From a virus (taxonomy: Duplodnaviria > Heunggongvirae > Uroviricota > Caudoviricetes): DNA of 49,166 bases. The position numbers are program-made. Below are positions 33,001 through 36,000 of the stretch, piece by piece. Every line of letters starts with the position of its first letter. Position 1 is the stretch's first letter. The stretch lies in the IMG/VR virus record IMGVR_UViG_2923307698_000008; one strand, written 5' to 3'.

Positions 33001-36000
33001 AAAAATAATGCTATGGCTGATAAAACTATGCCAACTTCATATATAGATTTAGCCCAGGCGTTATATTTCCAGTTGAACTTCAAAATAATAAAAAAAACGA
33101 TTGTAGCAACAAAAAATAACACCGACCAATCAATAATATCATTAAGCACAGCCAGGACAACAGACACCGTCAACAATGAAAAAGCCACTACCTTATGCCA
33201 ACTGAGAGTTGACAGTGACAGTACTAACACAATCCACATAAGCACTCCTTTTATTTAATGATGAAGATTGATTATCAATATTTTCAATTCACCAGGCAAC
33301 ATTTTATCCACCTTCCACAATACATGACCATCAAAAAATAAACATGTTAATTATAAACACAGAAAACATAACCCTCATCACTATATATCCCTACCGCATA
33401 TCCATATCTAACCGGACATTCAGAGCCATAAGCATTCCTTCAATAATACCTTCCGCTTTATAAAGCCTTTTACCAATAAGCCCATCAGAACATCTATGCT
33501 TACGTGCAAGAGCCATAAATGTCATTCCACCTACGTAATAATCCACCAACAAATCGTGCAAATACTGATTATTCTTGTTTAATCGTGCCATACAACCACA
33601 AATTATCATGGCGTCATCATCAGAACACTGAGGACGTGATTTCACTTTAGTCGGGATTAATCCTTTAAAACCAGCAGCTATCGAGGGCCATGTTACATCT
33701 TCATGATTATTTGCTGCCCATGCCCCCCATCGCTCAAGAACCATCTGGATATCACGCGCCATCGTTACCACCTCTGATTTCGTAAATCTTCACGCCCAGC
33801 CGTCCACCTGGCACAGGCTGACCGCGCACAATATTGATTTCATCAAACTGCTCGTCATCAATGAGCACTTCCGCATGCGTCAGCGCATCCAGCGGTGCTT
33901 TCAGAATGTTGTCCAGGTCACGGCGGCGCTTATCCGGTGGTTCTGCAATAATTTTTATTGCCAGCCGTCCGGACAGGCTTAATTTCAGCCGCTGCTGGCG
34001 AACAATAAGCGCCACAGCCCGGCGATAACGCTCACCGGCTTTTGATACAAAATATGTGCTGCCACGACGTCGCCAGTAGGTGTTCACCGTCGGCGGGTAA
34101 GGCAAAACAAACTCTATACGCATCAGTAACCTCTTTTACCCGAGCACGCCGGTTGCAAAAGCGTGATCAAGAAAACGAAAAATTAAATCAACCTGGGAAC
34201 CATGCTTTTCTTCGAACGCCAGCGGATCCGCATGAAGCTCGTTGTGATGCTCCCGACACAGCGGTAGCGTGAAAATATCGTGGGATTTTGTTCCCATTCC
34301 ACCCTGACCATGACCAATCAGATGATGAGGATCGTCCGCTGGCTTACCACAACACGCACACGGCTGTGTCTTTACCCAGCGTGTGTATTTCTCATTTACC
34401 CAGCGGCGACGTTTAGGTCGTTTCATGAAGGATTTCGGAGACTCCGGATCAACGGCAATGCTGACCACCGTCTTTTCCTGTGGTGGGTTCTGTTGCTGGT
34501 GGGTGTGAGGCGGTAGCGCAATATTTTTTGTGCGCTGCTTCAGTATGCTGGTGGCGGTCTGTTCTCCCAGTATGATGTCACTTTCACGGTATACGGAGCG
34601 GATTTTTTCCGCCGGTAATCCCAGAGAACGACGCGATACTGCCTCAGGTAATGCGTCCACCACCTGATTGCAGACTGCCCACCAGGATAATTCAGCCAAC
34701 GATAATTCCCGTTCCTGTATGCCATTCATTGCGTGGCGGATGACGTCAATCATCCATGCTGACAGGTTTTGTTGAGCAAGTTGCTCAAGTGATTCGGATG
34801 TCTGGTCGCGCAGCTGGTTGTCGCAGTGCCAGCACAACACCATCGCGCCGGTACCGTAACGATGTATGACAGTTTCGCTGTGATGATAATCACCATGAGG
34901 CCACTGGCAGGATTTAACGTGACGTAATAACCAGTCAGACAGTGCACCAGCGCCACCAGCAGCACGAATCACACGCTCATTGCTGAAAAATGGCAGTAAT
35001 GATTTATCTTCCGCCAGCGGCTGGCGAACGGCAGGAACGACCCCGGACGGCAGATTACGCATGCTTTTCGGTTCAGACTCCACCAGCACCCTGCCGCCAT
35101 GAAATACCCGCATGGATTCACGGCCTGGCTTAACGATAACCAGACCGAGTTCCGGTACCGGAACAGGTCGAAGTAATACCCGCACATTACCTCCAGATCC
35201 GTTGCTGGAATGTGCGGGACGGACGCGGTGGCCGTTCGGAGTAAGGGAGCCTGACGGAGATTATCCAGTGACGGTAGTCGAGGCTAAGGGCTTTTTTAAC
35301 CTCGCATCCGCGCCTGCGGTAACACTGAATGAGCCATTCGGCCTGTTCTTCAGTGCATGGGGGATGCTGGTACCAGTCAGATTTGAATGCGTGAAAACAC
35401 CGTCCGCGCCTGCTGGCAAAGACGGCAGAATCATCAGAATTGTATAATTTGGTATCGTGCGCCATCGGTTGTCTCTGCTGGCGCAGCAGGTGCCAGTTGT
35501 TCAGGCTGGCGTGCGAATTGTAAACCAGAATGCCAGGAAAAAACAAAACCCGCCGAAGCGGGTTAAGTGCGGGTGCGTTGAGGATGCCTGATTCATCAGA
35601 GGTGGCGAGGGATTTCTCCCCCGCCAGGTCTCTTACTCCTCAGGTTCGTAAGCTGTGAAGACAGCGACCTCCGTCTGGCCGGTTCGGACTCGTACCTCGC
35701 AGAGGTCTTTCCTCGTTACCAGTGCCGTCACTATGACGGTTAAACAGATGACGATCAGGGCGATTAACATCGCCTTTTGCTGCTTCATAGCCTGCTTCTC
35801 CTTGCCTTTCGGCACGTAAGAGGCTAACCTAGATTTGCCGTTCATAGATTGAGCCTCAGATTAATGTTAAGCGTCTTGCAGGACGCGTAATGTTAACTGG
35901 GGCTTTTCTCTATCTGCCGTTGGTGTTCATGCCCGAGGCAGATAGCCTCAAGCACCCGCAGCTATTCTACTTAACTTCCCATTACCTCGCCAATATGAAA

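Follow-up and report, generated by a model that had tools for sequence, protein, structure and literature searches.

Is a hok gene that lies without the relB and relE genes of its best-known K-12 relative an orphan toxin, or does it belong to a complete toxin-antitoxin (TA) module? This question is raised by a locus in the virus record IMGVR_UViG_2923307698_000008 (Caudoviricetes), a stretch of 49,166 nucleotides (nt) that was analysed as a whole and is called the window here. A sequence-only reading had assigned a Hok-family type I toxin gene nearly identical to hokD to positions 35633-36000 and had left open whether a Sok-like antisense RNA controls it. This range covers hok and its leader. 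The strand, which is the minus strand, was not stated, and the 3' untranslated region (UTR) at 35632-35541 was omitted. The locus is very probably a complete, ordinary prophage hok/sok type I TA module. It is an element of a known kind in its usual complete form, and it is present, annotated as hokD, in many public genomes.

The toxin gene has its own ribosome-binding site (RBS) and shares its stop codon with a longer open reading frame (ORF):

35788-35633, minus strand: hok toxin coding sequence, 51 amino acids (aa) plus stop, assigned by Pfam and by identity to HokD
35803-35798, minus strand: hok Shine-Dalgarno sequence AAGGAG, 9 nt 5' of the hok ATG
35845-35633, minus strand: mok-like ORF of 70 codons, in frame with hok and with a common stop

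HOK_GEF (PF01848) of Pfam matches residues 25-66 of the 70-aa ORF with E = 1.5e-22. The hok peptide is 98% identical to K-12 HokD, with a single residue change (V for I), and the DNA is 97.7% identical to K-12 hokD across 265 nt. The gene encodes a small (about 50 aa) hydrophobic toxin of the Hok/Gef family, and its near-identity to HokD, claimed at the outset, was borne out. The Shine-Dalgarno sequence had been regarded as intact. It is present, has the consensus sequence and lies 9 nt before the ATG, but it is not free: Its GAG half pairs with an upstream CUCUU in a conserved helix (35824-35818 / 35794-35800), which is seen in 55 distinct leaders and forms part of the Rfam consensus. According to this predicted fold, the hok RBS is partly sequestered and not freely accessible, as would be expected if hok translation is coupled to that of mok.

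The mok ATG (35845) is located inside the Sok target, and the ORF overlaps hok and ends at the hok stop. Its product is 87% identical to MokW of phage 933W. The same shared-stop layout is annotated for mokW/hokW of 933W and mokC/hokC of K-12. An in-frame mok was considered as an oddity and rejected, because these two pairs are alike and the layout is normal for the subfamily. Homologous loci were fetched from species-representative genomes and from IMG/VR, yielding roughly 130 genome and phage loci. Among 80 distinct loci, the hok ORF is intact in all (49-51 codons), the mok ATG is kept in 79, and mok is in frame with hok in 63. Since the ATG is kept while the frame varies among homologues, this sequence comparison suggests that translation of mok matters more than the mok product.

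The hok Tyr47 codon TAC is followed by G (35647-35650, minus strand), which creates a TACG motif. In K-12 hokC, hokD and hokE this motif is edited by TadA (A to I, Tyr to Cys; PMC5630033). Editing of the Tyr47 codon here would give a second cysteine opposite Cys30, and the flanking CAG/CUG could form the small hairpin needed for editing.

The gene is preceded by a structured leader and followed by a 3' UTR with which this leader is predicted to pair:

35993-35964, minus strand: hok mRNA promoter, sigma-70-like, from a consensus scan (-35 TTGGCG at 35993-35988, 18-nt spacer, -10 TAGAAT at 35969-35964)
35957-35541, minus strand: predicted full-length hok mRNA, about 417 nt, from GGGUGC... to the terminator
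35957-35946, minus strand: 5'-terminal tac element GGGUGCUUGAGG, pairing with fbi and, once the 3' end is trimmed, with ucb
35945-35910, minus strand: leader stem-loop (inverted repeat) with a perfect 9-bp stem (35937-35945 with 35910-35918) and an 18-nt loop
35905-35899, minus strand: upstream complementary box (ucb) AAGCCCC, pairing with tac in the 3'-truncated mRNA
35583-35571, minus strand: fold-back inhibition element (fbi) CCUCAACGCACCC in the 3' UTR, complementary to tac
35564-35538, minus strand: Rho-independent hok terminator AACCCGCUUCGGCGGGUU plus U tract, from a terminator scan (GC-rich part 35564-35547)

A covariance-model search for hok/sok elements, one of the checks proposed together with the sequence-only reading, matched RF01794 on the hok strand with 107.1 bits at a gathering score of 59. 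The match (35783-35957, minus strand) spans model positions 1-157 of 157, i.e. the leader fits a curated structural model from end to end. This Rfam 'sok' model matches the hok-sense strand and describes the hok leader and the Sok target. The 5' end of the mRNA was set at position 1 of the match, and its 3' end was taken from the terminator scan. The hok promoter sits immediately 5' of model position 1. Its -10 box TAGAAT is kept in 68 of the 80 loci, while the -35 region and the sequence beyond it vary. Homology among the loci stops just past the hok terminator; the 3' UTR (35632-35541) holds fbi and the terminator.

The minimum free energy (MFE) fold of the full-length mRNA reaches -175.6 kcal/mol (z = -9.5). 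In this fold, the first 12 nt, GGGUGCUUGAGG, pair with CCUCAACGCACCC (35957-35946 / 35583-35571), so that the long-range 5'-3' interaction of tac and fbi is found in silico. The tac element is invariant in 73 of 80 loci, and fbi is conserved in the 3' UTR of K-12 hokD and in 933W. A compensatory change (GAGG to GAGA with CCUC to UCUC) occurs in four Kluyvera-group loci that form a single clade. When the last 49 nt comprising fbi and the terminator are removed and 35957-35590 is folded, the 5' GGG.GCUU switches to AAGCCCC. This alternative tac-ucb pairing, predicted upon 3' trimming, corresponds to the first helix of the RF01794 consensus; its bases are paired in 54-55 of the 55 leaders.

The second helix of the consensus, nested within the tac-ucb helix, is the inverted repeat with the arms TCTATCTGCC (35909-35918) and GGCAGATAG (35937-35945). 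It had been likened to the fold-back elements of hok mRNA. The repeat is real, and an alifold analysis of the 55 distinct leaders revealed compensatory double changes at the pairs 35943/35912 and 35937/35918. It is, however, a conserved leader stem-loop; an identification as the fold-back inhibition element was rejected, since fbi resides in the 3' UTR.

Does an antisense RNA exist? The opposite strand contains the elements of a Sok gene that face a hairpin in the hok leader:

35802-35830, plus strand: Sok promoter, read from sequence (-35 TTGCCT at 35802-35807, 17-nt spacer, -10 TAACCT at 35825-35830)
35837-35907, plus strand: predicted Sok antisense RNA of 71 nt, composed of the 5' tail GCCGUUC, a long hairpin and then GGGGCUUUU
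35857-35820, minus strand: Sok-target hairpin GAGGCUC...GAGCCUC, from folding, with the mok AUG in the upper stem and a variable loop

The annotated sokW of 933W and sokC and sokB of K-12 all align to one 5' end at 35837 on the plus strand. Their 3' ends map to 35907 (sokW) and 35913 (sokC and sokB). This mapping predicts a Sok gene at 35837-35907 and gives a putative answer to what had been left open. The predicted RNA (71-80 nt) folds with -33.3 kcal/mol (z = -5.7) into one long hairpin with a free 7-nt 5' tail, which is complementary to the loop of the target hairpin in the hok leader. The -35 box, spacer and -10 box of the Sok promoter are identical to those of 933W sokW, and the promoter is kept as TTGCCT/TTGACC plus TAACCT/TAATCT in the great majority of the 80 loci. 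In sokW, a -10 mutation abolishes protection (PMC8621323). A Sok gene, antisense to the mok start and equipped with a promoter and a terminator of its own, is probably encoded in cis in the window.

The Sok hairpin and the matching leader hairpin share an extra GC-rich tip of 15-17 nt (CGCGUCCUGCAAGACGC) at 35868-35889. This tip is absent from the Rfam consensus and from K-12 sokC and sokB, and it is present in 933W sokW.

How does this locus relate to K-12 hokD (relF) of the cryptic prophage Qin? Their prophage neighbourhood is the same, with a DUF968 (ydfU-like) gene and Q lying downstream, and the 3' UTR with fbi and terminator is common to both. An alignment of the window with MG1655 Qin displays near identity from AGGAGAAGCAGGCTATG through hok, fbi and the terminator. 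Upstream of AGGAGAAGCAGGCTATG, which lies 14 nt before the hok ATG, the alignment shows no homology to K-12, where relE is found. K-12 hokD has nothing of the module upstream of AGGAGAAGCAGGCT, neither promoter, tac, leader stem, Sok gene nor mok; relE-relB are located there instead. Because homology starts only at AGGAGAAGCAGGCTATG, K-12 hokD is, as judged from sequence, a derived, 5'-truncated relic, and the window carries the complete form.

The absence of relBE has to be seen in this light. A K-12-type pair is indeed missing beside hok, as the sequence-only reading had stated: Directly upstream of hok, the hok leader is found and not relB-relE. This absence is no anomaly, since relBE are not 'partners' of hok and K-12 has the truncated form. 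One could still imagine an orphan toxin that is read through from neighbouring phage transcription, similar to relBEF without the partners and devoid of dedicated antisense control. K-12 hokD has exactly this status, downstream of relBE and without a leader, and RefSeq gives 'hokD' as the sole feature of the locus, without a sok RNA. In genomes with an identical locus, PGAP names 'hokD', whereas mok and the sok RNA are unannotated (RefSeq loci L001, 6134-6289, and L137, 20134-20289); unlike RefSeq, the GenBank record of 933W annotates mokW, hokW and sokW. The window, however, possesses what is missing in K-12: a leader of 170 nt, a hok promoter, mok, and Sok with promoter, hairpin and U-tail. 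An orphan read through from outside is therefore highly improbable. Likewise, a toxin left behind by a relBEF operon was rejected, because leader, promoter, mok and Sok are all present.

The window does contain a type II TA pair at 42567-42758 and 42758-43045 (plus strand), which adjoins a gene for a repressor-like helix-turn-helix protein. NCBIfam assigns an antitoxin of the RelB family (92 bits) and a toxin of the RelE/StbE family (28.4 bits, barely over the cut-off), and it is the only RelB/RelE-family pair in the window. It was considered as a displaced Qin relBE and rejected, since the toxin has no BLASTP similarity to K-12 RelE.

The closest characterized relative is hokW-sokW (with mokW) of the Stx2 phages 933W and Sp5 (VT2-Sakai), whose BLAST match is 93.1% identical. 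Leader, tac, ucb, the Sok promoter hexamers with spacer, the Sok hairpin, the hok Shine-Dalgarno sequence and fbi are shared, as are the 70-codon mok in frame with the common hok stop and the Sok length of 71 nt. In the leader, differences from 933W are confined to the recognition patch and three isolated bases. The Sok tail and target loop read GCCGUUCAUAG here and GUUCAGCAUGG in sokW, with six mismatches in the first 13 nt. Mok residues 2-5 differ from MokW, and the Hok C-terminus is TAYEPEE in contrast to VDYESEK in HokW. The 3' terminator region is unrelated to that of 933W, and the locus lies in a nin-like region here but at the far right genome end in 933W. Takada et al. demonstrated type I TA activity of hokW-sokW of Sp5, with growth arrest by HokW (PMC8621323). 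Protection requires the sokW promoter and partly RNase III and Hfq. After addition of mitomycin C, Sok disappears and HokW accumulates, and the Sp5 yield halves without the locus (PMC8621323). A survey found hok enriched in prophages and the HokD peptide toxic on expression (10.1101/2025.08.07.668861). By analogy with HokD and hokW-sokW, the Hok peptide of the window would be toxic and neutralized by Sok.

The architecture also matches that of hokC(gef)/mokC/sokC and hokB/mokB/sokB of K-12, where the Sok 5' end is at the same position and the leaders have nearly the same tac, leader stem and ucb sequences. As in the window, mokC is in frame with hokC, whereas mokB is out of frame with hokB. 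DNA identity to hokC is about 74%, and the Sok hairpin of the window is 15-17 nt longer than those of sokC and sokB. An IS186 insertion 20 nt downstream of the hokC stop is a feature of K-12.

The paradigm is hok/sok (parB) of plasmid R1, whose elements and predicted refolding logic recur in the window. Work of the Gerdes laboratory established the lock between tac and fbi, the switch to tac-ucb, the attack of the Sok 5' tail on the loop at the mok start, and the coupled translation of mok and hok. In R1, mok and hok are read in different frames. Unlike the prophage-borne module of the window, that of R1 resides on a plasmid and has a proven role in post-segregational killing. HokW, a close relative of the toxin studied here, is only 44% identical to R1 Hok (PMC8621323).

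The regulatory elements and their conservation follow from sequence and predicted structure, whereas expression, toxicity and role of this copy are judged by analogy. From the R1 paradigm and hokW-sokW, the following mechanism can be proposed. A weak promoter would yield a stable hok mRNA of about 417 nt. With its 5' tac locked to the 3' fbi, the full-length mRNA would be neither translated nor bound by Sok. Slow trimming from the 3' end would take off fbi, whereupon tac could pair with ucb and the leader refold, exposing the hairpin with the mok start codon. The short, unstable 71-nt Sok from the opposite strand would dock via its free 5' tail on the loop of this hairpin and block translation of mok and, hence, the coupled translation of hok; the duplex would be cleaved by RNase III. 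If Sok transcription ceases because the element is lost, the host is shut off or the prophage is induced, mok and hok would be translated, and the membrane peptide would depolarize the cell.

Is such a module still maintained? About 90 of the roughly 130 fetched loci align from leader to fbi, and about six start at the K-12 breakpoint. In this collection of sequences, the complete cassette is the usual form and the K-12 type a minority. A megablast search with a 551-bp query (35500-36050) at a coverage of at least 80% yielded matches in 3436 of 5426 complete E. coli genomes, with a median of two and a maximum of ten matching places per genome (partial copies included). At least 23 genomes, among them serotypes O121 (for example RM8352), O103 (O103:H2) and O157 (O157:H7 493/89), contain a 100% identical copy of this query. 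Hits to a 471-bp query (35530-36000) were obtained in 79 phage records, some of them of Stx phages; the locus is found in many Stx and lambdoid phages. Per-column entropy, computed for 64 distinct, closely related copies, stays at about 0-0.1 between roughly 35970 and 35545 and reaches about 1 in the flanking DNA. With low entropy inside and high entropy outside, the unit behaves like a self-contained cassette about 430 bp long. Near-zero variation next to unrelated flanks indicates that the whole cassette is under purifying selection.

These data bear on the view that the locus is a silent relic, which looks intact, is inert, never releases its toxin and persists only by hitch-hiking on prophages. 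Several points weigh in its favour and against a functional module. Two papers that both cite Pedersen and Gerdes 1999 state that the hok loci on the E. coli chromosome gave no post-segregational killing and were regarded as inactive, their toxin not being released (10.1101/2025.08.07.668861; PMC5630033); an intact structure need not imply a phenotype. K-12 hokD is a truncated copy, and transcript, toxicity and Sok activity of the copy in the window are deduced from relatives. Furthermore, the Sok -10 box TAACCT has only 3 of 6 consensus matches and was for this reason not flagged by the promoter scan, and the match to the Rfam 'sok' model supports the structure of leader and target, not Sok itself. 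Covariation support is modest, with few independent events among closely related copies. On the other hand, every regulatory element is kept with near-zero variation over dozens of distinct copies whose flanks are unrelated, and hokW-sokW, a close relative, works in the prophage that naturally carries it (PMC8621323). A silent relic is unlikely, and a complete hok/sok module is much the preferred explanation.

The prophage is lambdoid and Qin-like, and the module sits in its early-right (nin-like) region, flanked by replication genes on one side and by DUF968-RusA-Q on the other. The order on the minus strand is replication-region genes (DUF1627, DUF977), hok, a small ORF, DUF968 (ydfU-like), RusA, Q, a CPBP-family protease and three tRNAs. 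AT-rich DNA and an esterase gene had been noticed upstream of hok. There, GC content drops from 45% to 29%, and a 257-aa alpha/beta-hydrolase ORF is found at 36393-37166 (plus strand). The AT-rich island (36050-37550, 29-39% GC compared to about 52-56% around it) separates the replication genes from hok. The moron-like hydrolase ORF opposes the surrounding early genes; its match to the Pfam Esterase family is weak (E = 0.0044, below the cut-off), and the NCBIfam search gave none. A second AT-rich island (32150-33650, 34-40% GC), which follows closely on the gene for the antiterminator Q, contains the ORF for the protease, a 274-aa CPBP/Rce1-like intramembrane enzyme (32421-33245, minus strand). 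At 30542-31058 (minus strand), an Rfam match to the sRNA STnc100 (138 bits) was found beside the three tRNA genes, which are annotated as Ile, Arg and Arg in related genomes. This arrangement is as downstream of Q in Stx-type lambdoid prophages. In two related genomes that were inspected, no stx gene is present at the corresponding position.

Two further RNA elements were detected in the window. A match to the ALIL pseudoknot (Rfam, 120 bits) at 15533-15649 (plus strand), a frameshift element of IS3-family insertion sequences, would suggest an insertion sequence in the late-gene region; in a collinear O121 genome, the equivalent stretch is annotated with tail and head genes. A full-length match to the sRNA DicF (77 bits) at 44717-44768 (plus strand) is followed by an ORF at 44846-45142 (plus strand). 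The C-terminal part of this ORF resembles DicB, and the annotation of the related O121 genome agrees. DicF and the DicB-like ORF confirm a Qin-like immunity and division-inhibition region.

What might the module do for such a prophage? Its main role could be one other than maintenance: It might accelerate lysis and phage release on induction, or act in abortive infection when a superinfecting phage shuts off host transcription. Such a main role is slightly less likely than not. The loss of Sok and the rise of HokW after mitomycin C, together with the halved Sp5 yield in the absence of the locus, argue for a function in lysis (PMC8621323), and T4 exclusion by R1 hok/sok (summarized in PMC10305079) for one in abortive infection. 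In addition, hok is oriented like the early-right operon, in which every gene from the O/P-like genes to Q is encoded on the minus strand. Due to this co-orientation, induced transcription would cross hok in sense and run against the Sok promoter, so early transcription through the cassette could link toxin release to induction. However, the 933W locus is situated at the far right genome end and not in a nin-like region, so the results may not transfer, and no enrichment of hok near defence systems was observed, which argues against a role in defence (10.1101/2025.08.07.668861).

Within the near-invariant 430-bp cassette, one hypervariable patch stands out. It spans 18-20 nt (35831-35850), has an entropy of 0.65-0.78 and corresponds to the Sok 5' tail, the target-hairpin loop and mok codons 2-4. 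Among 78 loci, 17 variant patch sequences were found; the tail of the window, GCCGUUC, is one of the rarer types (7/78 loci). Fourteen variants were folded, and the hairpin stem was preserved in all of them, while the 13-nt tails differ by a mean of 4.4 positions. Co-resident copies were compared in two genomes with three full copies each, one of E. coli and one of Shigella, and in one IMG/VR contig pair. In both genomes all tails are distinct, whereas the contig pair, which comes from a single genome, carries the same tail. In R1, the Sok 5' tail initiates target recognition, as work of the Gerdes laboratory revealed, so the patch could set the specificity between co-resident copies. It might be a specificity determinant under diversifying selection, with each co-resident cassette answering only to its own Sok, but this is somewhat less probable than not. 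Relaxed constraint on the loop would be the simpler alternative. The literature searched contained no description of Sok-tail diversification or of tails exclusive to one copy within a genome; this is not a proof of absence, and Pedersen and Gerdes 1999 was outside the search results. If the specificity hypothesis is true, loss or induction of one prophage would fire the toxin of that prophage alone, comparable to plasmid incompatibility groups based on antisense RNAs.

For the hok family, these results mean that the K-12 reference arrangement (relBE-hokD) is misleading: The complete cassette is the common form in prophages of pathogenic E. coli. Standard annotation names hokD alone, so that complete modules look like orphan toxins. 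Several near-identical cassettes per genome differ mainly in the recognition tail of Sok. This tail variation is relevant to prophage stability, induction-linked lysis and antisense cross-talk in Shiga-toxin-producing strains.

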